From Prorocentrum cordatum (Eukaryota), in the NCBI GenBank assembly GCA_963575745.1, contig CAUYUJ010000203.1, forward strand, positions 1-64,000: DNA of 64,000 nt, given 5' to 3'. The notes beneath the pieces were generated by a model. The model had not been told where the DNA came from, searched no databases, and saw nothing but the letters and a program-made list of their open reading frames with translations. Both the position numbers and the translations under genes were made by a program. Shown here one piece after another: positions 15,111-40,653 of the stretch. The stretch's first letter is position 1; the number at the start of each line of letters is the position of its first letter.

Positions 15111-15271
15111 TCGGCGAGAGCAGCATTTTGAAAAAAACACCAGCGAAAACCCGTTTCCCGGGAATCCTGTGTGTAAAAAAACAATACGCGGGGGGGTGTC
15201 GGATATCTTCGGGACGCCATCAGGGGAAGTGGGGGAGTATTTTCATATTGTGTAACTGTGGAGGGGGAGGG

Positions 15272-15459
15272 TGTTTTTGTCAGAGTCGGCCACAGACCAG
15301 TGCATTGTAGCAACCATGTCTTACCTTGCTCAGATGCGCTCTCTCTCCGCTGCTGTTTGGATCAGGGATCGTTCGCAGTGCGGGGCACGAGATAAAACCT
15401 TGCATGTTGCTTTCTCTGCAAATCATGTGGTTGGCCAGGGGAAAGCTGTGGCTTTCCCA
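15272..15459 (+). repeat. 5' LTR of element A (188 bp, TG...CA)
   Basis: Aligns to 22407-22635 with about 12 substitutions, a 1-nt indel and a CT-run length difference (manual count). Confidence 0.9.
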
Positions 15460-15472: not shown

Positions 15473-15543
15473 AGTTTGCTCCAGCGTCCTAGGAGGGCCG
15501 CCCAGTGCTTGCCGGGAGGCGCCGGCAGACGACAGACCACAGA

Positions 15544-17100
15544 ATGACTACAGAGTCCACGGATCCGAAGGGGTTTCGGTATTTTCACGGAGATAGCGGA
15601 CAAGGCAGCAGTCAGGAGCTGCGAAAGTGGATCAAGTGGGTTCGCTCAGCGATGGCGTGCCGCAAGTTGGAGGCCACACAGAAAGGGCCCTTCGTCTACA
15701 CTTTGCTGCAGGGTTCAGCGCTGGAGGTTGTGGACCACCTCGAGTTTGAAGACTATGAGGTAGAGGGCGGTGAACAATTTTTGATCGATCTCTTGTTGAA
15801 TCGCTGGCCCGTGAAAGAACAGGAAGATATCCTGGGCGAGCACTTGGAGGCGGTGTTCGGACTTCAGGGACGGGAAGGAGAACCCATCGCGGCTTGGCTG
15901 GGCAGGGCCAAGGGGGTGTTCAAGAAGTGTGGCGTCAAAGCCAACGTGCAGTTCCCGACGGAGGCACAGGCTTGGATCCTGCTGCACCGGTGCGGGTTTA
16001 CGCCCGACCAACGAGCCATCGTGAAGGCGAAGGCGACGAAGTACACGGCGGATGACATGGAGGTGGCGATCAGAGTTGTGTTTCCCGCTTACAAGGTGCC
16101 GAAGCTACGACGCGTCGAGGCAGGCGCGTTCCTGGCTGACCAAGCAGAGGATGATGAAGATGGCTTTCCACCCTCCCCACGGCCGTGGCCGTGCGAGCCG
16201 GGGACGGTCCAGGAGGATGATTTCGCAGATGTGGACGCGCTCCTGGCCGAGGGCTCCCCGGAGGCAGCAGCTCCCGAGGAAGTGCTGGCGGCCACGTGGA
16301 AGGAGAGACGCCGGGAGATCAACGATGCTCGCACGACGCGAAACTTCCAGAAGGCAGACAAGCTGCAGATCACCTTCCGCCGGGAGTTCGAGGAGGCCAA
16401 GCGGAAGACACGGTGCCATGCCTGCAAGCAGATCGGTCACTGGTCTCGCGAGTGCCCGAAGAAGAAGGGCAAGGGTTTCGGCAAGCGCGGCAAGCAGTCG
16501 ACGGCGGCGGCGGGGGCCGCGTTCGTGGTCCTGGAAGGAGCCGGAGCGCGCGACGCCAGCCTTGCCACCGTGCTGCAGCAGATGCGGGCTCGTCGTGCCG
16601 CGGCGGAGCCGGGCGGGGACTTCCCCGTGGAGATCCTCTTCGCGTGCCCCACGGGCAAGGGCGTTCTGGGCCCTGGCTGTGGCCGGGCGCTCATCGGGGA
16701 GCACCCGCCGGCGAAGCTGAAGTCCTTGTTGGAGTCGAGAGGCCAGCAAGTGGGGTCCTATGAGGAGATGAACGTGTTCAGGTTCGGGAACAGCGGGCGC
16801 GAGGAGTCGCGTCTGGCGGTCAAGATCCCCGTCGAGATCGGCCAGGTGCAGGGCTACATCGCGGCTGCGGTGGCACGCGGAGACGTTCCGCTCCTGCTGA
16901 GCAAGCCGCTGCTGAAGGCTCTTCAGGGCCGCATGGATTTCACGACGAATCAGATTTCGTGCGATGCCCTGGGGGCCACGGTGGACCTCGAGGAGACGGA
17001 GTCTGGCAACTATAGCATGCCAGTGGTCGCAGGCACCACGGATGTCTGCACGGTGACGGCCAAGACGCCGAAGGAGCTCACAACGGAGCTTGAATTCGAC
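15544..17100 (+). pseudogene. gag: Element A gag plus aspartic protease
   Basis: CHACKQIGHWSREC zinc knuckle; protease motif decayed to GVLGPGC (from xLDTGC); FRFGNS and VPLLLSKPLLKAL motifs; frameshift near 17090-17105. Confidence 0.9.
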
Positions 17101-17320
17101 GGGCCCGGTGGAGGAGGAGAAGGAAAAGGCCACGGAGGACACGCAGGAGGAGATCTCGAAGGAGGCGAACGAGGAGGAGGAGACGACGAAACAGCTGATC
17201 CCCGGGGCCGCGGCGAACATTGAGGAGCCCGGGACCTCGGTACTGAAACGCAAAACCCGACGCCGGTTACAAGAGCGTCTTCGGACGGCTCTAGGTGTTT
17301 CTCAGGAGAAAGTACAATGG

Positions 17321-17945
17321 CGGGTTTCGGAACTGTTTTCCCCACCTCGAATGTTGAAGCGGGCCGAAGAGGCCATGCGTGGAACGGGGCGCAGTTATGA
17401 TTTACTGACGGGCTACGATCTGTCTGACCGAACGGTGCAACAGGAGGTCACCAATGAGCTGAAACGGTTCCGACCCCGGGTGCTGGTGGCTTGTCCCCCG
17501 GGTACGTGGCGCGGCGGCTTTGCGACGGTGAACGCCCGACTGCACAGCATGACGGAACATGTGCGTATGGTGCGGGAGGCACGCGCGCACATACGGTGCT
17601 GTATATGCGAAATACATACACAACTCGATCGCGGATACGATGCCGTGTTTGAGCACCCCGTGCGATCGATTGCGTGGAGGATGCCCGAGATGCAACGTTT
17701 ACGAGAACGGATGCTGGAAGTATCGACCGATATGTGCGCGCACGGTCTACGAGAAACCGGGGGCCCCAACTTTATAAAGAAACAGACGCGTTTGCTGGTT
17801 TCGCCCCAACGACTAGTTCAATGTCTGGGTAAACGTTGTCCCGGGAACCATCGCCATGTGACCATCGAAGGAACGTCGAACGGTATTTCCAGGAGTAAAT
17901 TAGGCAGGTTTATATACGACGGACTTTTGCGAAGCGATCGTACGA
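17321..17945 (+). pseudogene. C5 DNA-methyltransferase-like domain within element A pol, between protease and integrase
   Basis: Ordered motifs ELFSPPR (I-like), D-L-x-T-G-Y-D-L, ACPPG (IV, PPC with C>G), FEHP (VI), DMCAHGL...KKQT (VIII), CPGNHRH; collinear with the element B domain. Confidence 0.65.
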
Positions 17946-18149
17946 GGCACCGACGACCTGGCGCAGGAGCTGAGTTTTGAGCAGGAGCTGTCGCTTCTGC
18001 CCCTGGAGGCCAGCCTACGCGAGGCCTCGCAACGTGGGCGCCTGCAGCTGCTAGAGGCCGGACTGTTTCAGCGCTGCCTGGCCGCGGGCCTGGAAGATCC
18101 CGAGGCCGAACAGGACCAGCCTGACCTTCCTTCCCCCATTGCCAATGCT

Positions 18150-19190
18150 CAGAACATCCGAAATGCTCTCCGAAAGCTACGCGTTAACCTGGGCCATGCG
18201 GCTCCTCGAGAGATGGTTCGAATCCTGCGACACGGTGGAGGGCGCGATGAGGCCATTCGGCTAGCTCGAAGTTTTCGGCGCGACACCTGCGACGAAAACA
18301 AAATGCCGAAACCATGTGGAACCGTCTCGGGGCACCGGATTTTGGAATTTAACAAACAGGTGGAAATCGATGGGGTAAACATTCCAGGCTGGAAAGGACC
18401 CACACATACGGTCCCCGCTCTCAATATTGTGGACGACGCGTCGTCCTTCCAGGCTATGGCGCCATTGCTACAGGGAGAAAACTCTGGGACGATTCGGGAA
18501 GTTCACCGACAGTTCTGGACACCTTGGGCCGGTCCTGCCGAGCGTATCGTGGTGGATGCGGGTAAGGCCAGCATTGGGGCCGCCCTTGCGGACCCCCTGG
18601 AGCTTTAACTGGCCGAGATTGTGCCGGTGGCGGGGGAGGGACAATGGCAAAATGGAAAATTTGAATCACACGGGGGATGGTGGAAGCGTATCTTCAAGAA
18701 ACTACTGGAGACGGTTCAACCACAGAACTATGACGAGTGGGCCGAGTGTGTCGATGCGACGACTGACGCTAAGCAGCGCATGCTGCGGGTAGATGGTTAT
18801 TCCCCCTATCAGCACGTGTTGGGCCAAGAACCCCGACTCCCTGGAGACTTGCTCCAGGACGCTGTCGATGTGGTGAGCTCGACTGGCCCGTTGTGCGATA
18901 CCGCCTGTGCCAGATCCCGAGAGATACGCCAACGGGCGATGCGCGCTTTGCTCCAGGCACGGGACGATTAGGATCTCCGTCGTGCTGTCTCTTCCCGCAA
19001 CAGAGTTATTTACGCCTTCCAACCAGGGGACAAGGTGGCCTACTGGCGGAAGGGGAAGAAGGCACATGCGAGGTGGCATGGACGCGGAATACTTATTGGA
19101 CAACAGGGGCGAAACTGGTGGCTCTCCCACCGGGGACACCTTATTCGGGCCGACCCTTCCCAACTTCGACCGGCCTCGACCAGCGAGGTC
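18150..19190 (+). pseudogene. Element A integrase (HHCC finger, DDE core, SH3-like C-terminus), with stops
   Basis: LRKLRVNLGH...FRRDTC (decayed HHCC), EIDG...VVDAG...QNGKFE, GYSPYQHVLG, VAYWR...WHGRG...LIRADPSQLRPA. Confidence 0.9.
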
Positions 19191-19899
19191 CAAGCGGATC
19201 AACTTGTGGAGCAAGTGCTCCAGGACGAGAAGCAACGACTGAGTTCCGTTGGGGGGCACTTACATTTCTTGGACCTCACCAAGCAGGAGTTCCCCATGGC
19301 CCCTCCGGAGTTCCATGACAGCAGGCCCACTACCGAGAGTCCAGTAGAGACTCCCACCGAGACCCTCGAAACCCCGAGTGTTGATGCCAACCCCAGGAGT
19401 CTCGCCATGACAGGACCCCCAACGCCTCCTGAGCCTCCGGGGCCCCCAACGACTCCAACTGTAGGTCCGACACAGCCTGTGCAACAACCACGACGACGTA
19501 TGACAACGAAACGGCCCATCGACGAGGTCATGCAGCCTGCGGCCCAACAGGGCCCACGCCCCACCGAGGGACGAGACCCGACGACGCTCGACGACGAACC
19601 ACATGACGACGATCTCCTACCCCTGGTAGCCCCCGAGGATGTTGCTATTGAGACAATGCCATTGCTCCGACAGGCTACGCGAAGCCCGTCCCTTGAGCGG
19701 GAGGCTCTCCTATGTCATGCCGAGGGGCCTGAGGTTGCTGCTCTCGCGACTGCGGCAATCGAACGCATTGCCCGTGTCGAAGCTACCAACGCCGCCGAGT
19801 GGCGCCAACCCTTTACGACGCTGTTGGCTGGAGCCATCTCACGACGCGGTCGGAAGGAGCCCAGTTTCAAGGGCACCTCCAGCGAGCTGATCCGCAAAG

Positions 19900-21480
19900 G
19901 CGAGACAGCCCGCGCCCTGGAGGTCGACAGCCTAATCTTGAAAGGATGTTTACGGGTGGTACCCAAGAGAGAGGAGCAGGAGGCGAGGACCAAGTGGAGT
20001 TCCAGGTTCATCCCCGGACGTTTTGTGATGACCGAAAAGGAGGAGGAGGGCCAACCTACTCGTAGCAAGGCCCGCTGGTGCCTCAGGGGGTATCTGGATC
20101 CCGACCTATCTGAACTGATTCAAGAGGGGAAGCTACAGAGTCCGACTATTACGCCTTTCGGGAGAGCGGTATGCTTACAGATGGTGGCAAGCCACCAGTG
20201 GGATTTACAATTCGGTGACGTGCACTGCGCTGTCCCAGAAACCAAGCACATTAAGAGGCGGGAACCACTTTTCACGACCTTACCCGGGGGGGTGCCAGGA
20301 CATCCGGAGGGAGAGATTCTGGAAGTTATCAGGAACCTGTACGGTAAAAACGATGCACCGTTTGAATGGTTTCAAGAATTTGACGGCTATTTACGACAAC
20401 TTGGCTTTTGTCCTGGTCGGTGTGACCCCTGCCTCTACTCCCTACGAGACCACGGTAGTCTTGTGGGTGCGCTGGCATGCCACGTGGATGACAGCATCAC
20501 GGGCGGGCATGGCACTCTGTATGACGAGGCTATCCGACGTCTTCGCGAACGCTTTCCGTTTCGCAAGTGGCAGACACATGCTGGCGAATTCTGCGGCACC
20601 CGTTATACCCAGGACGCCGAAGCCAAAACCATTCAGGGGAACCAGGCCAAGTTTGTGGAGAAATGCGACCGGTTCGTTTCAGTTGACAGCGACTTCGGGA
20701 CCCCAAGGCCAAGGCCAATCTTGTTTCGGAGACGGTGGATGGGTGCGCAAGGAGACCCGACCAGATTTTTCCTGCCAGGTTTCTTTCGGACAAATTTGTT
20801 TCCCACAACTTACTGTGGGTGAGCTAGCTCAGAGCGCCGCGACGGTACGTCACGCCACGCAATATGCAGACTAGGCGATTACTCACTTGCCGATACCACC
20901 CGGACAACTGACCATGATTGCGCATCTGGATGCAGCCTGGGGAAATGCAAAAAAAACAATGGGACCCAGGCCGGATACGTTCTGGCGTTTACGTCTACCG
21001 ACATGGCAGTTGGCAAAGAGGCCCCCTGGACCCCGTTCAACTGGCGTTCGTTCCGACTCAAACGACTGGTACCCAGCACTTTGTCGGGAGAGGCCCAGGC
21101 GGCTTCCATATGCTGTGCTGCCCTAGAGTGGATGTCCTTGCTGTTGCACGAGGCCCTCGATGGGCCCGTTGATGTGAAGAATATTGACGCCTGTATGCGT
21201 ATACGGGAACCTATTGTGGTGACAGACTGTAAGTCGTTGTACGACCATGTGAAAGCGAATGCTTCCCCCTCCAGCCTAGAAGATAAACGGTGTGCTATCG
21301 ACGTGGTGGTGATCCAGGACTCAGTCCAACGCTGTGGTGCGAGTTTCCGCTGGTGTCCGACGAACCGACAGCTAGACGATGCCCTCACTAAGGACAAAGG
21401 GGACCCCGCAGACCCCCTAATGGCCTGCATGAGAGCCAACAGATACCAACTTGCCGATGAACAGTATGTGCTTGAATTAA
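19900..21480 (+). pseudogene. pol: Element A reverse transcriptase plus RNase H (frameshifted)
   Basis: KARWCLRGYLDPD, SPT, LYGKNDAP, DPCLY, CHVDD; RNase H DAAWGN, STLSGEAQA, TDCKSLYD, QLDDALTK. Confidence 0.95.
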
Positions 21481-21769
21481 AAGCTAGTGAACGGGAGAAC
21501 CGACGGTTGCGTGGGACCCAGAGAAAGGAACAATCGACGAGGATGCCTGGGGATCCAGTGTGGTTGTGCTGACGTTTGGGAATAGGGACCGGGTTCTAAA
21601 TGCATGGATGTGCGTGTGTGCCATACGTGTACGACCGACACCTGCATATTTCGACTGCTGCTACCATGGTTTGAGGCTCAGACCACAATATTCCGACGTG
21701 CCCCCGTTTCGTGTGAAGCGTGAGTGTGCAGACGCTCGTGCTCTGCCAGCGCAGAGCTAGTCGGCCGCC

Positions 21770-22288: not shown

Positions 22289-22406
22289 TCTTGCTGGGAT
22301 ATGTGCTGCAAGAAGGAGGGGGCCGGCTCGGCCCAGCCCTACACGTTTTTGTGTTTCTATATGTTCATTCCTCGTTGTAGTTTCCAGAGTTGAGATTTTA
22401 GAGAAG

Positions 22407-22470
22407 TGTGTTTGTCAGAGTCAGCCACAGACCAGTGCATTGTAGCAACCATGTCTTACCTTGCTCATAT

Positions 22471-22526
<56 letters not shown>

Positions 22527-22635
22527 CTGCTGTTTGGATCAGGGATCGTTCGCAGTGCGGGGCACGAGACGAAACCTTGCAGTTGTTTTCTCTGCACATC
22601 ATGTGGTCGGCCAGGGGAAAGCTGCGGCTTTCCTG
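22407..22635 (+). repeat. 3' LTR of element A with expanded (CT)n
   Basis: Direct repeat of 15272-15459; terminal CA reads TG here if the GAGGG TSD register is right. Confidence 0.88.
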
Positions 22636-22699: not shown

Positions 22700-22990
22700 C
22701 AGGAGGCCCCTACGCGAGCCCCACACGCGAGCCCCACGCGGGTCCCGCGGGACCCCCACGGGAACCCCACGCGAGCCCCACGCGGGTTTCGCGCGAGCCC
22801 TGCGCGAGCCCTCGCAAGGCCCACGCGAGCCCCGCGCAGGCCCGACGGGAGCCCCCCGCAAGCCCCACGGGGGCCCGAGGCGAATCCCACGCGAGCCCCG
22901 CGCGAGCCCCACGCGAGCGCCACGCGAGCGCCACGGGAACCCCACGCGGGCCCCACGCGGGCCCCGCGCGGGCCCCGCGCGAGCCCCTTT
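22700..22990. repeat. (CCCCACGCGAG)n ~11-nt minisatellite
   Basis: Tandem degenerate units. Confidence 0.85.
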
Positions 22991-26545: not shown

Positions 26546-28773
26546 TGAACAAACCAATGTCGCACAAACGCGGCGGCGGATTTTTGCATGCCGTCTGAGC
26601 CCGCAACGACCTCTTCAAGCCCCGTCCAGCCCGCAACGACCTCTTCAAGCCCGCATCCACACCAGCCCGTCCAGCAACTTTGCCCTGGCGAGTTGCCTTG
26701 ATCAGAGAAGTCGGGGAGCATAAAGTGGAAAAAAGGGATTGCGTTGCCGTTATCTTGGGAAAGGAGGGGGAAGGCAGGAGGAGTAAACAGGGGGCGAGGA
26801 GGACGCGAAATAATAGAGGATGTAAGGAGAATGTGGAGAAAGAGGAGGAGGAGGAGGAGGAGGAGGACGAGGAGGAGCAGACGAGGAGCGAGGAGCAGGA
26901 CGACGAGGAGGGGGGGGGGGGAGGAGGGGGAGGAGGGGGACGGGGAGAGGAGGGGGAGGAGGATGAGGATGGACGGCAATGGGAGGACGATGGTGGAGGC
27001 CGATGAGGGGGTGGACGACAATTGGAGGACGATGATGGAAGGACGAGGGGGGGAGAGGGAGGACGAGGAAGAAGAGGAGGAGGACGAAGTGGAGGAGGAG
27101 GATGACGATGACGATGACGACGAGTTCGAGGAGGAGGAGGAGGAGGAGGAGAGCGCCATCGACAGGGAAGGTGGGGGCCACGAGGTCCGCCGGCTCGACG
27201 ACGCCCGCGTCGCCCGCGCCCGCCCCCTCACTCTTATCTGCAATTGCGGGGTGCTATATACGTAGTTTTATGTGACAAGGGTCGCGCCTCACCCGCCCCC
27301 ATCCGACCACTAGCGCGCAAGTGCGTTCGAACGGTCTCGACATGCGCGCGCGAGAGGCCCGCTGGTCTCGATTGCTATGATTTTGAGAAAAAAACAGAAG
27401 CGATCTTCAAAAATTCGCAAGCGCGCGAGCGCCATTTGTGTTAGTGGTGAAAACTCGAATCATGCCTCAGGCCGTCATCAAGGACAATACGTTGTAAGGC
27501 CGCCGCAAAAAAACATGTTTGTAGATTTGCCCTAGCTGGTTTTGATGTGTTAGTGTTTCCCTTGGTCGTGTTCCAGAGCGTCCGGCGTGAGCTCTTCGTT
27601 CTGTCCCTCCTTTCCCTCGTTGTCTTCGCCGTCATCGTCATCCTCCTTCTCTCCATGGTCCCTCGTTCTCTCCCTCTTTCTAATTTTTGTTGGATCGTCA
27701 TACTCTCGTGCCTTTTCCTCATTCTCCTCCCCCTGCCTACCCTTTCCCATATGAGTCATAATGGTCATCGTCGCCCTTCCCCTCCCTCTCCTCTAGCCTC
27801 AGACCCCTGTCCCCCGAGGAACAGCAATACGCCTGACGATTCCGAGGACGAATGGTGATATCAATGAGGATTGCGATGATCATGCAGGAGTGCATAACTT
27901 GTTTTTTTTCAACCGTTCCCTTCCCCAGTGATGGGCGACATGCCGATTATGAGGGATGAGAAAACTGGACATCTTTTCGCATCCGTCTGCTTGCACATCT
28001 ACCACTCGATCGAACTCCCCGGAGGCGTGGCCCATTCCTGCTTCTCTTCATCCTCATTTTCATCGCCGTCCCCACTTTCATCCTCAACGTCACCGTCAGC
28101 CACCCCCACTATCTTTAACATGCTCGCCTCATTGTCGTTATCTCACATCCCCCATTCTTACACGACGAGGAGTACCTGTTCTGATGATGGAGGGGCAAGT
28201 ATTGACGTTGATGCGTGTGAAAATGGAGTCTCATCCTCACCCTGCCCATTCGCATGCATACTCCATACCAACCCCTCCTGAAAAGGGACGCATGGCGATA
28301 GCGTAGTACTCTGGTAAGGCCACTGAAACTGACGAGGATGCGGCGCAACAGGACGACGGGTTGCATGGGCGTTGGCAAGGTTGGCGTCGGCGTGATGCAC
28401 TTACCGTTTAGGTACTATTGCATTGTGACCGTGTGTATATACCTGGAGGCAAACGGAACACTAGCGCTGGCTGCGAACACCACCACAACAATTGCACGTG
28501 TCAGGGTATGTGGATGAGACCACGGGCTGGGAGCGGATGGGTGGCATCTGCAGATAGCGCAGGGGGTTCGAGAGCGGAGGAGCGCTGAATTCCGAGCCCC
28601 GAGGACGACGAGCACAGGGGCAGGCAGGCGGGAGGGGGGTGTTTGGGAACGGCGGGCGGGGGGTGCGGAGACGCAGATGGGAGGGGGGGGGGGGCGAAGG
28701 CAGCGAGGGGACGGGGAGGAGGAGGAGGAGGAGGAGGAGGAGGAGGAGGAGGAGGAGGAGGAAGAGGAGGAGG

Positions 28774-28948
28774 TGTTAACATGCAAGCGTTCAGGTGACA
28801 GGGGAGGAATAGCAACCCTATTGCCTTTGGCTCAAGTGTTTAACGGCCGAAGCTACTTAGACCTGCTTTGCCGTTCGGGAGTATAAAGGTGACCTATCAT
28901 TATCATTGTTGCCAGGCTCCCGTGCAGAACCCTCCTCGGGGTTTTGCA
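28774..28948 (+). repeat. 5' LTR of element B
   Basis: TGTTAAC...TTTTGCA; 173/175 identical to 39356-39530. Confidence 0.97.
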
Positions 28949-28960
28949 TGGTAGCGGAGC
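28949..28960 (+). promoter_or_regulatory. Primer-binding site TGGTAGCGGAGC (tRNA-iMet type)
   Basis: Directly abuts the LTR-terminal CA. Confidence 0.9.
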
Positions 28961-29062
28961 GCGGTTGCCAGGGCGGCGGCAGCGGCAGCTGCAGCCAGGC
29001 CTGGGCAGGGCGACCCGCCAGTTAATCTCAATGTGCCGGCAGACAGAGATGCATGGGTCAAC

Positions 29063-31580: not shown

Positions 31581-31738
31581 GCCCCCCATCACCCGTAAGA
31601 CCAAGCGAAAACTTAAACGTCTTTAATACCGAAGGAGACGAAGGGAGTGAAAGCGGGGGCAACGAGAGTGAGTTGAGCGACGTGGAAGATGTATGCGTGA
31701 GCGATGAAGCGGAGTTACCAAAGAAAGTTTAATGTGAT

Positions 31739-32660
31739 ATGAGGCCCTCGAAAGAGGAAGTTGAGGCGCATAACGCGATACATTTACCTTGCCGAAGCTG
31801 GTGCCCACATTGTGTTAGAGGAAAAGCGCGCAGGTGCAATCACCGTAGACGCAAAAGAGAGGGGAACGGAAACGTGCCAGTGATTTCAATGGACTACATG
31901 TGGCTTAAAGGAAGAAAGGAAGAAGGTGAAAGCGCCAGCAATGGCAATCCAATTTTAGTCATGCGCTGCAGGGAGACCAAATTAACTTGGAGCAGAGTGT
32001 TGATGAAAAAGGGAGTGGACTCATACTCGGTAAAGGTGGGATGTGACGTGATCAGTTTTACCGGATACAAGAAGGTGATACTCAAAAGTGATGGAGAATC
32101 GGCAATCACGGCATTGGCCAATAGGATTAAAGCTTCGTGTGATCTTGACATGGGGGTTGAAGTTAGCCCAGTGGGCGACTCAAAGGCCAACGGTGAAATC
32201 GAGGGAGCCGTTAGGACAGTGCAGGGTCAAGTCAGAACGTTAAAGAGCGCCTTGGATGCCAATTATAAGATTGAATTTGGTGAAAGTCATCAGATAATAC
32301 CTTGGCTGGTGAGCTATGCATCCTCTTTGATTAACAAGTTCACAATAGACACAGATGGGAAGACGGCCCATGAGAGGTGCAGGGGAAGAAAGTTTAACGA
32401 GCAAATTCCTCAGTTTGGTGAGTGTGTCATGTATTTGAAGACACCTGCACACAAGGGCCGTGAGAAGCTTGAAATGAGATGGGAAAGTGGAGTGTTTCTG
32501 GACATAAACGAGAACAGTCAAGAGCTGATTATTGGGACGCCAAATGGGGCAATCAAGGCGCACGAGTTTAAGAGAAAAGGAAGTGATGCGGAAAGATGGA
32601 ACATTGTCGAGGTCACCGAAATGAAGGGGTTACCTTGGCAGCCTGACCCTAGTGCGGCGG
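31739..32660 (+). pseudogene. Element B integrase
   Basis: HNAIHLPCRSWCPHC zinc finger; ISMDY, LKSDGE, ANGEIE catalytic D-D-E; DGKTAHER, FGECV, RWESGVFL. Confidence 0.95.
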
Positions 32661-33600
32661 GAATGGAATTACAGTCTAGGATCATGGTGCCCATGGACCT
32701 ACCAGAGCAAGTGTTAACTGCGCCTGAGACGAAGCCGCTCATTGCACGAGGGATTGCGGTTAAGAAGCACGAGTACTTAAAAATGGGACCGACACCGGGG
32801 CGTTACGGATGTAAATGTCTCGTGAGAGGAGACAAAGAGCACAAACCGCATAGCGCCGATTGCAGGGCTCGAGTTATCGAATGGTTAAAGAAACAAGAGA
32901 GCCCGAATATCCAGGCAAGGCTAGCATCTGCACAACTAAGACTTGAGAGTAAAAGTCGTGCACCAGAAAATCGTGATCAAGAATCAGAAAGTCAAGCGAA
33001 GAAACTGAGGACCAATGCACCGCCTCCGCCGAGCGCTAAAGTTGAGGAAGCTAAGGACGAGTGGATAATAAAAGGAAGCAAAGTTATATGCCAGCACCGA
33101 CGACCGAGGAAATAGTTAGCCTTCCCCACCAATGGTGGGTGTCCTGTAGATTGGGACAAACTTAAGCCCAGAAGATATACTCATGCGATCATGATTGACA
33201 GCGGCAAAATACATGAACACGAAGATGCTTGGTATGGTGAAGAGGGAGACGATCAAACATGGGCTATGGGAAACCCCTTTAACGGTTACTGGACCGGATG
33301 GACCGAGTTCGAAGTGGAAGATGAAGAGATGAAAGATCCCCCAAGTAAACTCATTAAACGAAGAGCAGAGGACGATCATGACGAAGAAGACCAACAGGCA
33401 ACTCAACATCGTCAACTTGATATGGAACAAGATGAAGAAATGTCAGAAGTAAACGACATCAGATTGGGGCTCACATGATGGGATTTGACTCTGAGCTGGT
33501 TGAGTGGTTGACGAGTGGGGAATTGAACGTTGTACATCAATTAAACGAAGTAAGGAGAGCCACCAAGCTCTATGGGGCGTGCCAACACGAGACTCAGGCG

Positions 33601-34262
33601 CACGTGACCGAGGCATATTCGCCGGTGAGGGTTACAGGAATGGCAGAGAAAATGGGATTGATACCGGGTCTAGCAATGGACTTAACGACGCGAGACCAAC
33701 ATGGTAACCCATGGGACTTTAATGTGCCAGCTATGCGAGCGAAAGCGTAACATATTGTCAAATCCAAAGCAACCCTGTTGCTGGTGGTGAGCCCCATGTG
33801 CGCAGCTTTCAGCAGACTTCAGACGTTCAACTTTAACAGATTAGGTGCTGACCGTGTAAAACAGATGTTGGATTACGGGATCAAGCATTTGACGTTTGCA
33901 ATGGAGCTTTGCGAAATTCAACGGCGAAATGGGTTATACTTTCTGTGTGAACACCCCGCAGGGGCAACCAGCTGGGGCACTTCAACAGTGCAACGGTTGC
34001 TCAGGAACAGAGACGTCAAAGTATACGATGGAGATTTGTGCTGTTACGACTTAAAGCAGATAGTCAAAGGTGAAGAGATGTTCATCAAGTAACCGACCAA
34101 GTTCATGACAAACAGTTCAGCCATAGGCCGTGAGTTAAGTTGGAAATGCAAAGGGCAGCATCGACACATGGAGTTAATTGGTGGCGGAAGAACTCACAGA
34201 TCAGAGGTCCTCCCAGACAAATTGCGCCGAGCGATACTGAGAGGACTTGTGAGACAAATGAA
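33601..34262 (+). pseudogene. C5 DNA-methyltransferase-like domain within element B pol, between integrase and RT
   Basis: EAYSPVR (I-like), MDLTT...PWDF, VSPMC (IV), CEHP (VI), DLCCYDL...K*PTKFMTN (VIII), CKGQHRH...LIGGGR; in-frame stops at 33748 and 34090. Confidence 0.7.
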
Positions 34263-34795
34263 GATCGACGGGCGTCAATGGGGGAACATTTAAAGAAGAA
34301 GAAGAAGCAACGAACATGGAAGTCGACGAAGAAGAACAAAGTGAAGCGCAGATAAGCGAGATTAACTGGGCATGTGAACATGAGAGCGAAGATAGGAAGC
34401 ACAAGCACCAGTTAACGTGGACGAGAAGAGATGATGGAACTCAAAGATTGATGCTACCGGGACCAAATGGACCACAATGGAGTTCATGCATTAGGAGAAT
34501 TACCGCTGACATGGACACGGGGAAGATCATCGAGGACAGACCTGCAAACGGGATCACAGGAAGAGAGAGAAGGAGAATGTTCAAGAAGGGACCAGTCAAC
34601 ACTTCCACCACCTTTACATATGAAGCTGTTGGCGAAATTGCTCCACACAAGTGGAAGTGCTGTGCATGTGATCATGAGGGCTGGCTCAAGACGCCTAGCA
34701 CATGTACAGCGTGCGAAAGAATTGGTACATTTAACCCTCTCCCCATGAATATGATCATCGTTGTCCACAAAGAAAATGGAGAGATCACTCAAGCC

Positions 34796-36406
34796 TGGGA
34801 TGATGTCACTGGAAACGAGCTCGATCCTAAATTAACTGTAAAAGCACGCCAAGAAGAAATGAAACAATTCAGAAAACACAAAGTTTACGAGAAAGTGAAG
34901 GAGGAAGTATGCTGGCAAATTACGGGGAAGGCACCCATCGGAGCCAGATGGATAGACATCAACAAAGGAGATGAATTAAGCCCAGACCACAGGTCAAGGC
35001 TAGTGGCCCAACAGGTTAAATACAATTCCAAAGAAAATGATATATTCGCAGCTACACCTCCACTGGAGGCACAGAAACTGCTCTTCTCAATGGCAGTTAC
35101 CGAAGGAGTTGGATTCACGAATGGTGAGCGTGAGAAAGGATTAAAGCTAGCATTCGTTGACATCAAACGAGCTTACTTTTACGCCCCAGCAAAGAAAGAC
35201 ATATTTATCAGGTTACCAGACGAGGACTATGAACCAGGTATGTGCGGAAAACTATTAAAATCAATGCACGGAACCAGGGGCGCCGCGAGCAACTGGGAAG
35301 ACTGTTACATGGACTTTGCTAACGAGGCTGGGTTCAAGAGCGGAATTGCGTCACCATGCGTATTCAAACATGAGAGTCGAGCGTTATGGTTCACAGTTCA
35401 TGGAGATGATTTCACGCTGTTAGGAGGTGATCATGATCTCGACTGGTTTGAAAATAAAATTAAGGATGAGTTTGAAGTAAAAGTGAGAGGACGACTTGGA
35501 CCAGGGAAGGAGGACATGAAGGCGATCAGAATTCTTAACAGGATTGTGGAATGGACGGAGGAAGGATTGAGATATGAGGCAGATCGAAGGCATGCAGAGA
35601 TAATTGTGAAAGAGCTTGAGCTAGAGGGAGTAAAAGTGAGGACTGAAGTGCCCGGTGAGCGCACTCCAGTTGAAGAGGGAGATGAGGTGGAACTTTCGCC
35701 CAACATGACTAAGAGATATCAAGCGTTGACGGCCAGAGCGAATTACTTAGCTCAGGACAGGTCAGACATACAGTATTCTGTAAAGGAACTAGCTAGGACC
35801 ATGTCAAAGCCAACGATGAGGTCTTGGAAGGGTTTGGTCAAGTTAGGAAAGTATTTGAAGTACCGCAGCAGAAGCAGCTATGTGTACCAATATCAGGAAC
35901 AGCCCCGAGAATTAACGATTTGGACCGACACGGATTACGCAGGATGTAAGCGAACCAGGAAGTCTACGAGTGGAGGAGTAGTAATGTGGGATAAACATCT
36001 TATAAAATCTTGGAGCACGACTCAAAGCGTGATCGCATTATCGTCAAGGGAAGCAGAATATTATGGGCTAGTGAAAGGAGGATCAGTGGGTCTAGGACTT
36101 CAGGCAGTACTGAGAGACTTTAACTTGGAAGTTGACATCACCATGAAGAGTGACGCCACGGCTGCGATTGCCATTGCGAGCAGACGAGGCTTGGGGAAAG
36201 TGAGACATATTGAAGTGTGTCAACTGTGGTTACAGCAGAAGGTAAAGGAAGGAGTACTTCGTATTGTGAAAGTAGGGACACATGAGAACACAGCTGATGC
36301 ATTAACCAAGTATGTCAGTCGTGAAAGCATGAGCGCACACCTACGAAACACGTGTCAATGTGCATTAACAGGTAGGCATGGTCTTGCGCCAGCTACAGAA
36401 TGTTGA
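34796..36406 (+). CDS. pol: Element B reverse transcriptase plus RNase H (open frame 34316-36406)
   Basis: AWDDVTG, RWIDINKGD, RSRLVAQ, FAATPPLEA, DIKRAYF, TVHGDDF, RILNR; RNase H TDTDYAG, STSGG, EAEYY, SDATAA, RHIEV, ADALTK. Confidence 0.97.
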   Translation, partial: WDDVTGNELDPKLTVKARQEEMKQFRKHKVYEKVKEEVCWQITGKAPIGARWIDINKGDELSPDHRSRLVAQQVKYNSKENDIFAATPPLEAQKLLFSMAVTEGVGFTNGEREKGLKLAFVDIKRAYFYAPAKKDIFIRLPDEDYEPGMCGKLLKSMHGTRGAASNWEDCYMDFANEAGFKSGIASPCVFKHESRALWFTVHGDDFTLLGGDHDLDWFENKIKDEFEVKVRGRLGPGKEDMKAIRILNRIVEWTEEGLRYEADRRHAEIIVKELELEGVKVRTEVPGERTPVEEGDEVELSPNMTKRYQALTARANYLAQDRSDIQYSVKELARTMSKPTMRSWKGLVKLGKYLKYRSRSSYVYQYQEQPRELTIWTDTDYAGCKRTRKSTSGGVVMWDKHLIKSWSTTQSVIALSSREAEYYGLVKGGSVGLGLQAVLRDFNLEVDITMKSDATAAIAIASRRGLGKVRHIEVCQLWLQQKVKEGVLRIVKVGTHENTADALTKYVSRESMSAHLRNTCQCALTGRHGLAPATEC

Positions 36407-36494
36407 TATTCGCAGCTCATTTCTGTCAAGCAAGCTGCAGCGATTAAAAGTCTTCTCCACCCATTACCTCTTACTCTTGGGCGTGAACGAAGGC

Positions 36495-38948
36495 ATGGCG
36501 GCTCCCCAGGTCAACCTCACCATCAACGGCTCCATGGTCGACCAGAGCCCGGCTGGGGATGGACCGGTTACGCGTGAGAACCTCAACCGCCGTGTTGACG
36601 ACATCGCCCACGTTGCTCGCGCGTTTACCGTGACCCTCGCTAACATGGCGATTAACTTTCACGGAGCCTACGACAAACACGTTGACGAGGTGCAAAGGGC
36701 CGCTGATGACATGGCGAAGAGGATCGAGGACTTAACGCGGCAGAACGATGGGTTGATCCAGGCCAGTGACGACGTCAACGAGAATCTCCAGAGGGCGCAA
36801 GCAGAAATTAACGCTCTGATGGCGACAATTACGGAGCTGAACATCCAGAATCGTGACTCGGGGGTTAACACGGCGGAGAATGCAACCAAGTACAGGCGCA
36901 TCAACGACAACATTGGTTACCTCCTGAACACCGCCAAACGCCTTACCGAGAACATCACGCCCCTGCAGGACTTCGAGGGCAAACGAGATGCGGCACTACG
37001 CATGTTGGTGGGAGTTACCGAGAGACTCGAAGGATTACAGAGGTTCTTGAATGACCCGATCAGTTCTTCGGTTACCATCATCCCGCAGGTGCCTCCGCCG
37101 TTACCCGAGCTGCCCCCAACGGCAGTGGCCGCCAAGGCGCCTCCCACTGCAGTCAACGCGGCGGCCGAGGCTAGCAAGCCTCTGGCCCGAGCTGCCGCGG
37201 CCTCGAGTGCACCCCCGGCTCAGGGCTTTACCGGTACCACGCCCAAGACCGGAGGGTTCGGTCGATCCGTGTCGCCGAATAAGATCCCGCAGTCAACGGC
37301 ACCTCAACCTGTTTACAAGAAAGCACCCAAGGCCATGCATGAGCGTAAACGGGAACTGGAAGAGTTACTGCAGATCGGCATGAAGATGGATGAAGACCGT
37401 GCGCAGAGCAGTCAACGTGACGAAGCACCAAAAGGTCCTGCCCCGGTGGTGAACGTGAGGACGCCCAAGCCGCCTCCTCCAGGCCTTGGCGAGTCAAGTG
37501 CATCGAGCAGTGTTAGCGGCATGAATCCCCCGCCCCCAGTGCCCAAGAAGTTATCGACCCAGCGCGTCCCTCCACCGCAGCCTCAAGCTGTTAACCGTAC
37601 GGACGAGCAGCTTGCGGCATACTCGCGGAATGTTGCCAGGGCCGTGCACCGCCCACTGTGCCACGTCAACGGCCACATGCCTATGGTGAACGACAGGTGC
37701 GAGGACCACGACGTCAACTACAAGGTGGAGCCCGACCCCAGGGAAGTAGTCGCGTTAACGATGAAGACGCGCGACAACTGGCGCAGGTTCGAAGACAACT
37801 TCGTCGGACATGTGGCGAAAGCGGGGTTGACGACTCCTGGTGGTCGATCTATTCATGGCAACACGGGGCGGGAACTTAACGAGTTCGATGAAGTGTTCGT
37901 CGACATTTACGGGCAGCACTCTTACGGCTTCCTCGGCTATTCAGTGTTGAAGGGCCCGTGCAGCTGGATATCGCAGTTGACGGAGAAAGAGTTGGCCAAG
38001 CACGACGAGTGGGTTGACGCGGTCGGACACGTACAATCCCTGTTCGACGACGAGTACGTGCCGCCAATCCACGTTGACGATCTCCACCCAGTGTGGTTCG
38101 ACGTTCACAGCTGCCCAGATACACGGGTTTACGTCAACAAGGTACCAGAAATGAATGAGAAGCAGCTTAACGGCCTTCTCCTAACGTGGGCAGGGATGCT
38201 GCCCCACGGCAACCCCACCGTGGTCTCCGTTAAGCACTTGGTGGAAGACACTTACGGGCCGCACGGTTACATCTCAACTGGGGTTACCGTGATCCGGTTT
38301 GCGACGCATGACCTTGCCAAGCTCTATTGCCGTTACATGAACGGGCTCCAGGTGTATTACCGCAACTACTTCATCGAGGACCTCGAGGTCAGGAGCGCCG
38401 AGGAGTTAAAGGGCAGCATCAACAAGCCTCCAGTTTACTGGCACCAGACCATCTTAGACGTCGCTCTTAACGATCAGGGGTCCATGAGGGCACTTTACCG
38501 TGACAACTGGCCGGCTGATCACATCACCGAGCGTAAAAGTGACCACCGCGAGAAGCTCTGCTGGTTTGGATGGTTGCCGTGCGACGACTTCCCCAACTGG
38601 CTTACCGACCCGGCCTGGACTGTGAACCCATTTACCGGAGTTGCGGTCGAAGAGCACCTCCGTAACAATCCAGGTGGTAAACCTCTGTTGAAGGCTCCCC
38701 ACGCCAGTTACTGGAGGGCCATCGGCACTTACCACAACATTGTTGACGGGTCCATCAAGAGCTTTGACGAGGGGTGCTGGCTCGACGACGAGGAGCGCAT
38801 TAACGCGTACTTGGACACCGACTATTACAGCCAGATGCAGGCCCTTAACAGGGTGTCGCCCTACACGGCGGCCAGCGTGGGGCATCGTGGTTTACCGAGG
38901 TCCAGGGGCGCACGCGCTCCGTCAGCGAGGCGCCCGCGCCGCTCGTAA
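36495..38948 (+). CDS. Element B 3' accessory ORF (817 aa from the likely ATG): coiled coil, Pro-rich linker, RRM-like domain, basic tail
   Basis: Uninterrupted ORF between pol stop and 3' LTR with GC3-rich codon use; heptad region about 36570-37050; RRM-like segment 38121-38399 (RVYVNKVP...TGVTVIRF...AKLYCRYMNG...DLEVRSA). Confidence 0.85.
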   Translation: MAAPQVNLTINGSMVDQSPAGDGPVTRENLNRRVDDIAHVARAFTVTLANMAINFHGAYDKHVDEVQRAADDMAKRIEDLTRQNDGLIQASDDVNENLQRAQAEINALMATITELNIQNRDSGVNTAENATKYRRINDNIGYLLNTAKRLTENITPLQDFEGKRDAALRMLVGVTERLEGLQRFLNDPISSSVTIIPQVPPPLPELPPTAVAAKAPPTAVNAAAEASKPLARAAAASSAPPAQGFTGTTPKTGGFGRSVSPNKIPQSTAPQPVYKKAPKAMHERKRELEELLQIGMKMDEDRAQSSQRDEAPKGPAPVVNVRTPKPPPPGLGESSASSSVSGMNPPPPVPKKLSTQRVPPPQPQAVNRTDEQLAAYSRNVARAVHRPLCHVNGHMPMVNDRCEDHDVNYKVEPDPREVVALTMKTRDNWRRFEDNFVGHVAKAGLTTPGGRSIHGNTGRELNEFDEVFVDIYGQHSYGFLGYSVLKGPCSWISQLTEKELAKHDEWVDAVGHVQSLFDDEYVPPIHVDDLHPVWFDVHSCPDTRVYVNKVPEMNEKQLNGLLLTWAGMLPHGNPTVVSVKHLVEDTYGPHGYISTGVTVIRFATHDLAKLYCRYMNGLQVYYRNYFIEDLEVRSAEELKGSINKPPVYWHQTILDVALNDQGSMRALYRDNWPADHITERKSDHREKLCWFGWLPCDDFPNWLTDPAWTVNPFTGVAVEEHLRNNPGGKPLLKAPHASYWRAIGTYHNIVDGSIKSFDEGCWLDDEERINAYLDTDYYSQMQALNRVSPYTAASVGHRGLPRSRGARAPSARRPRRS

Positions 38949-39347: not shown

Positions 39348-39355
39348 GAGGGGGG
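39348..39355 (+). promoter_or_regulatory. Polypurine tract GAGGGGGG of element B
   Basis: Immediately precedes the 3' LTR TG. Confidence 0.8.
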
Positions 39356-39530
39356 TGTTAACATGCAAGCGTTCAGGTGACAGGGGAGGAATAGCAACCC
39401 TATTGCCTTTGGCTCAAGTGTTTAACGGCTGAAGCTACTTAGACCTGCTTTGCCGTTCGGGAGTATAAAGGTGACCTATCATTATCATTGTTGCCAGGCT
39501 CCCGTGCAGAACCCTCTTCGGGGTTTTGCA
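39356..39530 (+). repeat. 3' LTR of element B
   Basis: Direct repeat of 28774-28948. Confidence 0.97.
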
Positions 39531-40439: not shown

Positions 40440-40489
<50 letters not shown>

Positions 40490-40510
40490 GGGGGAGGAGG
40501 AGGGGAAGGA
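39531..40510. repeat. Long (GGA)n-derived purine tract; target of element B, left part at 28715-28773
   Basis: Directly visible. Confidence 0.9.
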
Positions 40511-40653
40511 CGAGTGAGGATTGAGGAGATGGGGCGGGGGCGGGTGGGATGGAGGCGAGGGGGCCTAGCACCCGTCTTTCCTCCAGTCCCCTCCCGATCT
40601 TGTCCCGAGAGGCGAGCACTACGGCGAGCCAGACAGCGAGCCAATCACGGCAG

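Follow-up and report, generated by a model that had tools for sequence, protein, structure and literature searches.

A highly diverged DNA methyltransferase-fold domain without the glycine-rich cofactor loop in copia-like elements of Prorocentrum cordatum

Two copia-type elements and their domain copies

The window, a stretch of 64,000 nucleotides from Prorocentrum cordatum (GenBank assembly GCA_963575745.1, contig CAUYUJ010000203.1, positions 1 to 64,000), contains two LTR elements, here called A and B (Table 1). Both show Ty1/copia features, namely RVT_2, zf-CCHC, LTR pairs and an integrase ahead of the reverse transcriptase (RT). The position of the integrase was set in each element by matches to relatives, and the Pfam family rve itself was found in the relatives only. 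Element B is a 10.8-kb LTR element of copia type and encloses the region 33601-34262, in which the original prediction, made from the letters, had placed a divergent C5-methyltransferase-like domain. The motifs listed in that prediction do lie there, with letters and coordinates in agreement, in a forward-strand frame (33436-34293) that is readable throughout except for two TAA stops, whose presence had likewise been predicted.

Table 1. Features of elements A and B and of the domain copies that they carry
Feature	Positions	Strand	Basis
Element A 5′ LTR, three repeat pieces	15271..15457	+	repeat families D4-D6, 92-97% identical to 22406-22633
Element A gag/protease open frame	15493..17223	+	zf-CCHC, E 2.6e-5
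Element A domain copy, no stop, inside open frame 17057-17980, upstream of integrase	17237..17956	+	tblastn with P0001
Element A integrase, RT and RNase H, several frames	17904..21572	+	RVT_2, E 6.4e-10; matches to relatives
Element A 3′ LTR	22406..22633	+	repeat families D4-D6
Element B 5′ LTR, at least 180 nt	28769..28948	+	direct repeat D7, 98% identical to 39351-39530, spacing 10582
Element B gag/protease open frame, 737 aa	29367..31580	+	two zf-CCHC knuckles, E 6.5e-12
Element B integrase part of pol	31682..33508	+	tblastn with intact relative P0002 residues 1-608, 53% identity; ORF list
Element B change from integrase frame to domain frame	33466..33508	+	P0002 match passes from frame 2 to frame 1
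Element B DNMT-fold domain, 245 codons, containing 33601-34262	33556..34290	+	read-through protein P0001 (X at stops), alignments A1 and A3, models, fold matches
Motif-I counterpart E-A-Y-S-P-V-R, after strand β1	33610..33630	+	family consensus E-x-Y-S-P-P-R
D42-L43 (end of β2) and W53-D54-F55, candidate motif II and III counterparts	33679..33720	+	conservation, secondary structure
First in-frame TAA, domain position 65	33748..33750	+	letters and frame
Motif-IV counterpart S-P-M-C, after β4	33790..33801	+	family consensus S-P-P/M-C-x-x-F-S
Motif-VI counterpart E-H-P, end of β5	33949..33957	+	pairs with E-N-V of DNMT1
D-L-C-C-Y-D-L	34033..34053	+	letters
Cys162, invariant, in family D-(M/Q)-C-x-(F/Y)-G	34039..34041	+	family conservation
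K-stop-P-T	34087..34098	+	second TAA (34090-34092) occupies near-invariant Lys179
C-K-G-Q-H-R-H, i.e. C-x3-H-x-H (C198, H202, H204)	34147..34167	+	family conservation
C-terminal helix, consensus Y-P-x-x-L-C-x-A-I-x-x-G-L, candidate motif-X counterpart	34210..34248	+	conservation; helix 221-237 in both models
Element B RT/RNase H part (open frame 34262-36406)	34409..36403	+	RVT_2, E 6.8e-12; P0002 residues 898-1563, 71% identity
Element B extra open frame, 859 aa, between pol and 3′ LTR	36369..38948	+	ORF list
Element B 3′ LTR	39351..39530	+	direct repeat D7, partner of 5′ LTR

The pol gene of element B is broken in several places. Its integrase part has one in-frame stop (33113-33115), and where the frame changes ahead of the domain an extra base follows position 33472 in related contigs of all four sequencing runs. 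The RT/RNase H part is read in a different frame from the domain. For the extra open frame behind pol, no Pfam family scored above its cut-off, and the ESM Atlas gave no usable match.

The copy in element A is 26% identical to that of element B over 229 aa (tblastn with the read-through protein P0001 as query, E 3.8e-11), and matches to the relatives P0070, P0117 and P0092 place it ahead of the integrase. The predicted location between integrase and RT is thus correct for element B, but not for element A. The motif-I pattern E-x-(F/Y)-S-P-x-R does hold in both elements, as predicted, and reads E-L-F-S-P-P-R in element A. Element A also has E-H-P, but its motif-IV column reads C-P-P-G. Since the cysteine column is occupied by Gly there, the catalytic-type cysteine is not kept in both elements. 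The protein cannot be produced from either copy in the window, because that of element B is interrupted by two stops and flanked on either side by frame changes, and the one in element A is without the cysteine and belongs to a pol that is split across several frames.

We considered whether the two TAA codons might be recoded, and rejected this idea because of where they stand (one at a variable position and one at a near-invariant Lys), because of the frame changes around the domain, and because related contigs have other letters there: at 33748 another letter stands in every related contig aligned across it, and at 34090 related contigs likewise carry a different letter. Of the 40 best-supported differences from related contigs, third codon positions account for 24, and 22 leave the amino acid unchanged. 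None of the listed sequencing runs contained more than 0.16 of the sampled words, and no RNA run was among them. A search for a dinoflagellate spliced-leader 21-mer gave no match at up to three mismatches.

A large family with a rebuilt motif I

A homology search among longer proteins found 15 polyprotein relatives of the domain; a search with the open frame of element A found none among 2,338 candidates of near length. When the profile of the 15 sequences was compared with representatives of clusters at 50% identity, 17,097 of them matched at E ≤ 0.001, of which 2,052 also passed E ≤ 1e-30. Judged from these sequences, the motif set is shared far beyond chance. Only one relative carries a name, a protein of the dinoflagellate Effrenium voratum. 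A scan of viral contigs with the A1 alignment gave eight pattern matches, none of which was confirmed. In 25 long representatives, the region downstream of the domain contains RVT_2 (16), rve (4) or neither (5), and the orders of both elements recur in the family, PR-INT-X-RT as in element B and PR-X-INT-RT as in element A.

Conservation was counted in 139 full-length domains out of the best 165 matches, and the figures are biased upward because the counted sequences are the best-scoring ones. In the motif-I counterpart, E19 (137/139), S22 (129), P23 (118) and R25 (133) are accompanied by Tyr or Phe at position 21 (137). Gly occurs anywhere at positions 22-26 in just 2 of the 139 members, and the two Gly positions of F-x-G-x-G are taken by Pro (118/139) and Arg (133/139). 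The glycine-rich loop that had been reported missing from the copy in element B is therefore missing family-wide. D42 is found in 138 of the 139 members, W53 in 125 and D54 in 126; we infer that D42-L43 and W53-D54-F55 are the counterparts of motifs II and III.

The original prediction had also stated that the catalytic Cys and Glu are kept, and had named conservation of the PC and EHP motifs over family copies as a check. Except for the Gly in element A described above, this is what we find. In the motif-IV counterpart, P80 (137/139), C82 (138/139) and S86 (131/139) are near-invariant, as are E132 (137/139), H133 (130/139) and P134 (137/139) in the motif-VI counterpart, together with Gln122 (135/139) and Trp140 (138/139). 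Toward the C-terminus, C162 is present in all 139 members, G165 in 114, K179 in 135 and T181 in 132, followed by C198 (138), H202 (117) and H204 (137). These last three residues might form a metal site together with C162. The C-terminal helix is marked by Y219 (133/139), P220 (106), A226 (106), I227 (99) and G230 (121). Ahead of this helix, within positions 205-220, 3 of 139 members have a GN dipeptide; the G-R-A tripeptide, whose G211 is present in 112 of 139, is a possible counterpart of the motif-X Gly-Asn.

Fold and sequence comparison with C5 methyltransferases

We compared AlphaFold models of the window copy (pLDDT 84.5, pTM 0.84) and of residues 622-866 of the intact relative P0002 (pLDDT 92.2, pTM 0.89) with known structures. 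As modelled, both have a class I methyltransferase fold of C5 type, from β1 through the C-terminal helix, and the match to a Rossmann/C5-methyltransferase fold that had been proposed as a check was found with both models, by Foldseek as well as by VIA-align. Among the Foldseek matches listed from the PDB, C5 cytosine methyltransferases account for 37 of 40 for the window copy and 39 of 41 for P0002, including DNMT1, DNMT2, DNMT3A/B/L, MET1, DIM2 and Cp-933R, with best E-values of 3e-4 and 7.8e-4 for the two models. VIA-align against 48,161 chains placed only C5 methyltransferases in the first 8 rows for the window copy and the first 10 for P0002, at best Z-scores of 10.7 and 11.1 with 189-200 residues aligned. 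For the P0002 model, these matches include DNMT3A (Z 11.1, rmsd 4.2, 191 residues aligned), DNMT3B (10.9), 3g7u (10.3) and M.HhaI (10.0, with model residues 5-239 on chain residues 10-326). The structural scores are middling (TM-scores 0.34-0.51), and the best Z of 11.1 exceeds that of short-chain dehydrogenases and MAT2B (8.9-9.2) by only about 2.

The best structural matches by both TM-score and E-value are small viral DNMT-like proteins of about 210-225 residues (E 6.5e-8 to 4.3e-5, TM 0.46-0.62), namely BFVD A0A0A0RJX0, A0A2P0VN45 of Tetraselmis virus 1 (E 3.6e-5, TM 0.56/0.62) and C3U2K5 of Lactococcus phage P087. BFVD gave seven matches at E ≤ 0.001. Five of these have names, and every one is a methylase: three are specific for cytosine, another is entered as ‘putative DNA methylase’ and the last is a generic SAM-dependent methyltransferase. 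Given a size similar to that of the domain, the small viral proteins likewise lack most or all of a target-recognition domain. They differ from it in being free-standing genes rather than pol domains and, in this structural comparison, are 14-18% identical to it.

Sequence comparison gave fainter signals. With the single protein P0001, phmmer found no match in the PDB, and the only Pfam match, to RIMC1 (E 0.06), is at chance level. The A1 profile gave two chance matches in the PDB (E > 0.5). The sole match of the A3 profile at E ≤ 10, among 177,635 distinct PDB sequences, is human DNMT1 (E 1.9), in one colinear stretch that sets SPxC opposite PPC and EHP opposite ENV. Apart from B3, PF00145 is the only non-transposon Pfam family matched by several members (3 of 55, and 5 of 98), and the matches always cover profile positions 44-78, which correspond to motif IV only. 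None reaches the PF00145 cut-off of 22 bits, the best scoring 14.2 bits (E 0.029, 98 members). In the ESM Atlas, the nearest Pfam-bearing cluster is also PF00145 (score 0.85), which we treat as a lead only. A genome search with PF00145 led only to the E. coli locus. The Dcm orthologues found by homology were all at least 74% identical and made a poor outgroup profile, so 42 DNMTs of phages and prophages, drawn from 80 IMG/VR loci, were used in their place. Alignment by hhalign of 141 family members with 43 Dcm-like and phage DNMTs gave a probability of 5.7% in local mode and nothing in global mode, and A1 against Dcm alone gave 0.7%. These sequence signals are weak, yet they point in the same direction as the fold.

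In principle, the domain could be a Rossmann-type domain unrelated to methyltransferases, for example a Cys-His hydrolase or a nucleotide-binding domain, whose PC- and ENV-like motifs are convergent. The non-significant profile comparisons would fit this explanation, as would the Z-scores of 8-9 for short-chain dehydrogenases, near the best values of 10.7-11.1, and Cys82 and His133 could conceivably pair as thiol and imidazole. We nevertheless consider it highly improbable, since C5 methyltransferases head all structural lists across two models, two aligners and two libraries, since the only PDB profile match is DNMT1, with motifs IV and VI in order, and since PF00145 recurs at identical profile positions. 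Furthermore, the glycine motif of dinucleotide-binding proteins is absent.

The order of the motifs, compared with a Dcm consensus and with the DNMT1 alignment, also follows that of C5 methyltransferases (PF00145; M.HhaI, Dcm, DNMT1, DNMT3A/B, Dnmt2), with which the domain shares the Rossmann-like methyltransferase fold. Like them, it has an aromatic residue after β1, an acidic residue after β2, Pro-Cys ... Phe-Ser after β4, a Glu after β5, an (F/Y)-G motif and a C-terminal P-x-x-L-x-x-A-I helix. The S-P-M-C motif pairs with the PC of Dcm-like enzymes, of PF00145 and of human DNMT1. C82 was assigned as the catalytic Cys, E132 as the Glu of ENV and K179 as the motif-VIII Arg from motif order, secondary structure and aligned ranges rather than by superposition. 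The domain differs from C5 methyltransferases in having (Y/F)-S-P-P-R for F-x-G-x-G and E-H-P for E-N-V. Moreover, Q-x-R-x-R is missing, with K-K-P-T as a possible counterpart, a short C-x3-H-x-H insert replaces the target-recognition domain, and the score lies under the PF00145 cut-off.

Possible activities and implications for copia-like elements

We conclude that copia-like elements carry a genuine, if highly diverged, module of DNMT fold. The copy in element B is probably (at roughly 60%) a decayed pol domain of about 230 residues that descends from the catalytic domain of a C5 methyltransferase and belongs to a lineage that would no longer carry out canonical methyl transfer from SAM. On this reading, the domain is a standard, selected module of a very large Ty1/copia-like group, adjoining the integrase either after or before it. 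Its core keeps the order of β1, E-x-Y-S-P-P-R, an acidic residue ending β2, W-D-F, β4, S-P-P-C-x-x-F-S and F-L-H-E-H-P closing β5, and then (F/Y)-G ... K-K-P-T, a short Cys/His-rich insert in the place of the target-recognition domain, and the Y-P-x-x-L-x-x-A-I helix. It would still flip a pyrimidine out of DNA or RNA, and the conserved cysteine would attack the base. The domain may work as a base-modifying enzyme that needs no SAM, or it may form a covalent tether next to the integrase.

The retained catalytic-type Cys and Glu would also fit if the domain were still a conventional SAM-dependent cytosine-5 methyltransferase whose motif I is unusual and which methylates the cDNA or RNA of the element, as has been proposed for SymbioLINE-Dnmt. 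D42 and D54 occupy the places that contact the ribose and adenine of SAM, as inferred from motif order, and their conservation suggests that an adenosine-type ligand could still be bound. Furthermore, de novo CG methylation by DNMT domains of dinoflagellate retrotransposons has been described (PMC5890265). Such an activity seems unlikely here, however, given the almost complete absence of Gly from positions 22-26, the Pro and Arg that mostly fill both Gly positions, the rarity of the GN dipeptide before the C-terminal helix, and PF00145 matches that stay below the cut-off and are restricted to motif IV.

A third explanation draws on DNMT3L, the inactive DNMT3 paralogue, which has the DNMT fold, has lost its cofactor site and serves as a partner to another enzyme. 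The catalytic PC and ENV residues are lost from DNMT3L as well. The domain might similarly be a non-catalytic adaptor that binds DNA or chromatin and steers the adjoining integrase. The loss of the SAM loop, the position beside the integrase in both architectures and the presence of DNMT3L among the fold matches (Z 8.0-8.2) all agree with this. We regard it as quite improbable, because the family, unlike DNMT3L, has kept its catalytic-type residues almost invariantly, and near-invariance of Cys82, Glu132, His133, Gln122 and Trp140 across clusters less than 50% identical would be unexpected in an adaptor.

Of the original prediction, the observation itself is confirmed and the interpretation is partly supported, by the fold match, the conserved PC and EHP motifs and the family-wide loss of the glycine loop; altered cofactor use or chemistry, and a role as a reader or in integration, are putative. 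A more specific version of the preferred reading is that the domain is a SAM-independent descendant of a cytosine methyltransferase whose Cys, Glu and possibly His covalently bind or chemically alter a flipped pyrimidine, so that the integrase would read a base modification in DNA. We put this forward tentatively, as a possible but doubtful elaboration.

The discovery of retrotransposons that encode working cytosine methyltransferases is recent and much discussed. SymbioLINE-Dnmt, SymbioDIRS-Dnmt3 and KnitGypsy-Dnmt3, from dinoflagellates and charophytes (PMC5890265), likewise have a domain of cytosine-methyltransferase type inside a retrotransposon, and in the DIRS and Gypsy elements it lies within pol, as here; the host lineages probably overlap. 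The published domains are Pfam-detectable, keep their key functional residues and occur in LINE, DIRS or Gypsy elements, those from dinoflagellates being LINE and DIRS elements with canonical DNMTs (PMC5890265). The domain described here, on the other hand, sits in a Copia-type element, falls below Pfam detection and has no SAM loop. The premise that DNMT retrotransposons are known from dinoflagellates therefore stands for LINE and DIRS elements, but according to the same paper Copia, as a superfamily, ‘lacks any DNMT domain’ (PMC5890265). In the literature that we searched, we found no description of the domain in copia-like elements.

On the present evidence, a very large copia-like group carries a DNMT-derived domain, contrary to the absence from Copia reported in PMC5890265. 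The domain has diverged beyond the reach of Pfam, with a cofactor loop that was rebuilt systematically and catalytic-type residues that stay fixed. This makes it a natural, strongly selected test case of a C5-methyltransferase scaffold without the usual SAM site, an unannotated protein family suitable for addition to domain databases, and a new candidate player where transposons meet the unusual DNA modifications found in dinoflagellates. If the more specific reading is true, the integrase would read or exploit 5mC and 5hmU in the histone-poor chromatin of dinoflagellates, the domain being in effect a counterpart, guided by DNA modification, of the chromodomain found in chromoviral integrases, and would do so in what is, according to the literature, the most abundant retrotransposon superfamily of these genomes, Copia.

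A conserved domain in copia-like pol proteins

Element B, one of two decayed copia-type LTR retrotransposons in the window, is 10.8 kb long and consists, in order, of a gag/protease frame, part of an integrase, the domain, RT/RNase H and an 859-codon open frame. All motifs that the original prediction had listed for this element are present in the domain frame, and its observation of a motif-bearing domain is confirmed. The frame is interrupted by two in-frame stops and was translated with X at these positions, with no residues supplied at the breaks. An intact polyprotein relative of 1563 aa, P0002, aligns to element B as three segments that shift from frame 2 to 1 and back to 2, so frame changes flank the domain in addition to the two stops. 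The copy also departs from the family consensus at conserved P73, R127, H/F131, G165, K179 (a stop) and Y219 (numbered by domain position). Judged from its sequence, element B is a dead copy. P0002 itself ends ahead of the 859-codon frame, the middle of which is proline-rich and for which there was no Pfam family above the cut-off and no usable ESM Atlas match.

Features of elements A and B and their surroundings
Feature	Position	Strand	Remark
A: (GTG/CTG)n array and three 53-nt tandem units	14689-14925, 14935-15093		just 5′ of 5′ LTR
A: LTRs	15271-15457, 22406-22633		
A: domain copy	17237-17956		stop-free open frame
A: 175-codon open frame	21761-22288	+	between RNase H and 3′ LTR
A: 11-nt-period array	22677-23041		just past 3′ LTR
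B: 74-nt and 87-nt repeat families, interleaved	26014-26562		upstream; 4-5 copies each; core of CCCGCGACCCA type
B: long GGA/GAG-type purine-rich arrays	26817-27178, 28651-28775		short way 5′ of 5′ LTR
B: LTRs	28769-28948, 39351-39530		98% identical to each other
B: gag/protease frame			two CCHC knuckles
B: P0002 match	31682-33508		frame 2
B: stop in integrase part	33113-33115		
B: domain frame	33436-34293	+	
B: P0002 match	33466-34275		frame 1
B: E-A-Y-S-P-V-R	33610-33630	+	domain frame
B: first in-frame TAA	33748-33750	+	domain frame
B: S-P-M-C	33790-33801	+	domain frame
B: E-H-P	33949-33957	+	domain frame
B: D-L-C-C-Y-D-L	34033-34053	+	domain frame
B: K-stop-P-T	34087-34098	+	domain frame
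B: second in-frame TAA	34090-34092	+	domain frame
B: C-K-G-Q-H-R-H	34147-34167	+	domain frame
B: P0002 match	34409-36403		frame 2
B: copia-type RT/RNase H			RVT_2, E 6.8e-12
B: 859-codon open frame	36369-38948	+	between RNase H and 3′ LTR
B: long GGA/GAG-type purine-rich arrays	39500-40600		directly past 3′ LTR

Related contigs from four sequencing runs, aligned at 80% likeness, are relatives from other data sets and a different locus; no run shares more than 0.16 of sampled words with the queried DNA, and none is registered as RNA. Where the first stop begins (33748), all contigs have a different letter (7, 6, 5 and 2 contigs). The same is true of the second stop's initial base (34090) in three runs (8, 4 and 4 contigs), and in the fourth a different letter accounts for 28.2 of 34.7 depth. 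One additional base follows 33472 in 3, 4, 3 and 2 contigs. These breaks are thus peculiar to copy B. Among the best-supported 40 differences (156 more exist), 24 lie at the third base of a codon, and 22, each considered alone, are synonymous, as expected if purifying selection acts on the reading frame.

The domain is real and belongs to a very large, conserved family among copia-like pol proteins. Searches with it against Pfam and against PDB sequences gave no significant match, and a search among longer proteins gave 15 polyprotein relatives with 26-65% identity. RVT_2 is found in 11 of these by precomputed Pfam annotation; a separate Pfam scan adds one weak, below-cut-off match in P0016 from Effrenium voratum, the sole named protein among the 15. 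A profile built from a 15-sequence alignment of the domain, searched against 1.84 billion cluster representatives, has 17,097 matches at E≤0.001, 9,110 at E≤1e-10 and 2,052 at E≤1e-30. On its gag side P0016 (1510 aa) has CCCH-type zinc fingers (PF25585, PF25586), not CCHC knuckles, and its domain copy is without the segment bearing motif IV.

Conservation was counted in the 139 proteins that span the full domain among the 165 best-scoring family members, a choice of sample that biases the figures upward: C162 is kept in all 139; D42, C82, W140 and C198 in 138; E19, Y/F21, P80, E132, P134 and H204 in 137; Q122 and K179 in 135; R25 and Y219 in 133; T181 in 132; S86 and N186 in 131; H111 and H133 in 130; S22 in 129; D54 in 126; W53 in 125; P23 in 118; and H202 in 117. 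The family retains the Pro-Cys and Glu positions, and the PC and EHP motifs, whose conservation the original prediction had left to be checked, are kept. The glycines of the SAM loop are replaced across the whole family, with a glycine anywhere in positions 22-26 in only 2 of the 139, so the missing glycine-rich loop pointed out earlier is a family-wide property.

Predicted fold and probable descent

The domain has a C5-methyltransferase fold, with that family's motif order. AlphaFold2 models of the window copy (built with the 15-sequence alignment; pLDDT 84.5, pTM 0.84) and of P0002 residues 622-866 (built with an alignment, A3, of 55 sequences; pLDDT 92.2, pTM 0.89) have alternating strands and helices. 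In both, S-P-x-C directly follows strand 73-78 and E-H-P ends the next core strand, 128-134. C5 cytosine methyltransferases make up 37 of the 40 PDB matches listed by Foldseek for the window copy (best E 3e-4) and 39 of 41 for P0002 (best E 7.8e-4), at query-normalised TM-scores of only 0.34-0.51.

VIA-align, which is independent of Foldseek and compared 48,161 chains, places C5 methyltransferases in all of the top 8 rows for the window copy (DNMT3A: Z 10.7, rmsd 3.9, 189 aligned) and all of the top 10 for P0002. The latter are DNMT3A (Z 11.1, rmsd 4.2, 191 aligned), DNMT3B (10.9), 3g7u (10.3), M.HhaI and MET1 (10.0 each), DIM2 (9.9), DNMT1 (two rows, 9.8 and 9.5), M.MpeI (9.6) and the C5-carboxymethyltransferase 8yf3 (9.4); MAT2B and short-chain dehydrogenases come next at Z 9.2-8.9, a modest margin. 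Of seven structural matches in BFVD at E≤0.001, five have names, each of a methylase: three are cytosine-specific, one is a 'putative DNA methylase' and one a generic SAM-dependent methyltransferase. The top three BFVD matches are proteins 210-218 residues long, at E 6.5e-8 to 4.3e-5 and TM ≤0.62. Lack of a Rossmann-methyltransferase match was to have counted against the original prediction; C5 methyltransferases instead lead the structural lists, and the fold and conservation parts of its interpretation are supported. The aligned ranges of the window-copy model pair residue 13 with M.HhaI 10 and with DNMT3A 632, and Y21 would presumably then coincide with the phenylalanine of motif I in each of these enzymes.

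At the sequence level, the A3 profile has one PDB match at E≤10 (177,635 distinct sequences), human DNMT1 at E 1.9, in which 'lligSPmCtafs' pairs with 'MLCGGPPCQGFS' and, colinearly, 'ryfLhEhP' with 'RFFLLENV'. Weak PF00145 matches occur in 3 of 55 members and in 5 of 98 (E 0.029-0.33), and always fall within positions 44-78 of the profile. Apart from it, B3 alone among non-transposon families is matched by more than one member (3 of 55; 2 of 98). Local hhalign pairs the family's motif IV with a Dcm-like motif IV at 5.7% probability, and the nearest family-bearing ESM Atlas cluster is PF00145 (score 0.85, a lead only). Each of these likenesses is non-significant alone, but all point in one direction.

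In a by-eye, unscored reading of two consensus lines, Dcm and family counterparts run in the same order: F-I-D-L-F-A-G-I-G-G and V-x-E-x-Y-S-P-P-R-V; L-L-A-G-F-P-C-Q-P-F-S and L-L-I-G-S-P-P-C-T-x-F-S; F-V-L-E-N-V and F-L-H-E-H-P; F-L-P-Q-H-R-E-R and (F/Y)-G ... K-K-P-T; and G-N-S-V-V-V-P-V-F-A-A-V-A and G-R-A-x-x-A-A-x-Y-P-x-x-L-C-x-A-I. We infer, with a probability of about 85%, that the domain descends from a DNMT.

Two pol architectures

Among 25 long representatives of the family, 16 have the element B type of pol, with RVT_2 roughly 70-130 residues past the domain, and four have the element A type, with an integrase core (rve) past the domain; five show neither family. Relatives matching element A (P0070, P0117 and P0092) confirm the order of domain first, integrase second. 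The placement between integrase and RT given in the original prediction holds for element B, and the element A copy lies upstream of the integrase. The domain adjoins the integrase in both architectures, and may be linked to it functionally.

The element A copy has 26% identity to that of element B (tblastn E 3.8e-11), in a pol that is spread across several frames. It is off consensus at S79, C82, F85, S86, N186 and Y219, and since C82 is a Gly here, the earlier claim of a catalytic Cys retained by both elements is wrong for element A. G+C content is 46-54% in element B (window 28001-36000) but about 60% in the flanking DNA and element A, so the two elements are of unlike composition despite their common domain. 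The 175-codon frame of element A matches PF20600, a short family of ExoX-like C-termini (30.5 bits, cut-off 26.5; E 2.4e-7).

Possible activity and relation to known elements

Canonical SAM-dependent methyl transfer has probably been lost, and the chances are roughly even that cysteine-based covalent action on a flipped pyrimidine is retained. An adenosine-type ligand may still bind, given the conserved D42 and W-D-F, and C162, C198, H202 and H204 form a putative metal site. In vitro and without SAM, C5 methyltransferases are able to deaminate cytosine and to attach or take off groups derived from aldehydes; our literature search gave no usable paper on this SAM-free chemistry.

A description of the domain was not found in the searched literature, although subscription journals, Repbase reports and unopened supplements may hold one. 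The available parts of a diatom DNMT survey (PMC9998398) and of a dinoflagellate genomics review (PMC11453091) make no mention of such a domain, and those of Chen et al. 2017 (PMC5776459) name only integrase, RT, RNase H and LTRs in Symbiodinium copia-like elements. Canonical DNMT domains are described, in the available text of de Mendoza et al. 2018 (PMC5890265), in LINE and DIRS elements of Symbiodinium and in Gypsy elements of Klebsormidium. Of the Copia superfamily of LTR elements, which outnumbers the others in Symbiodinium, that text says that it lacks 'any DNMT domain'. The domain is probably a retrotransposon-captured DNMT domain of a new and strongly diverged form, and it is found in the one superfamily that this text reports to be without one.
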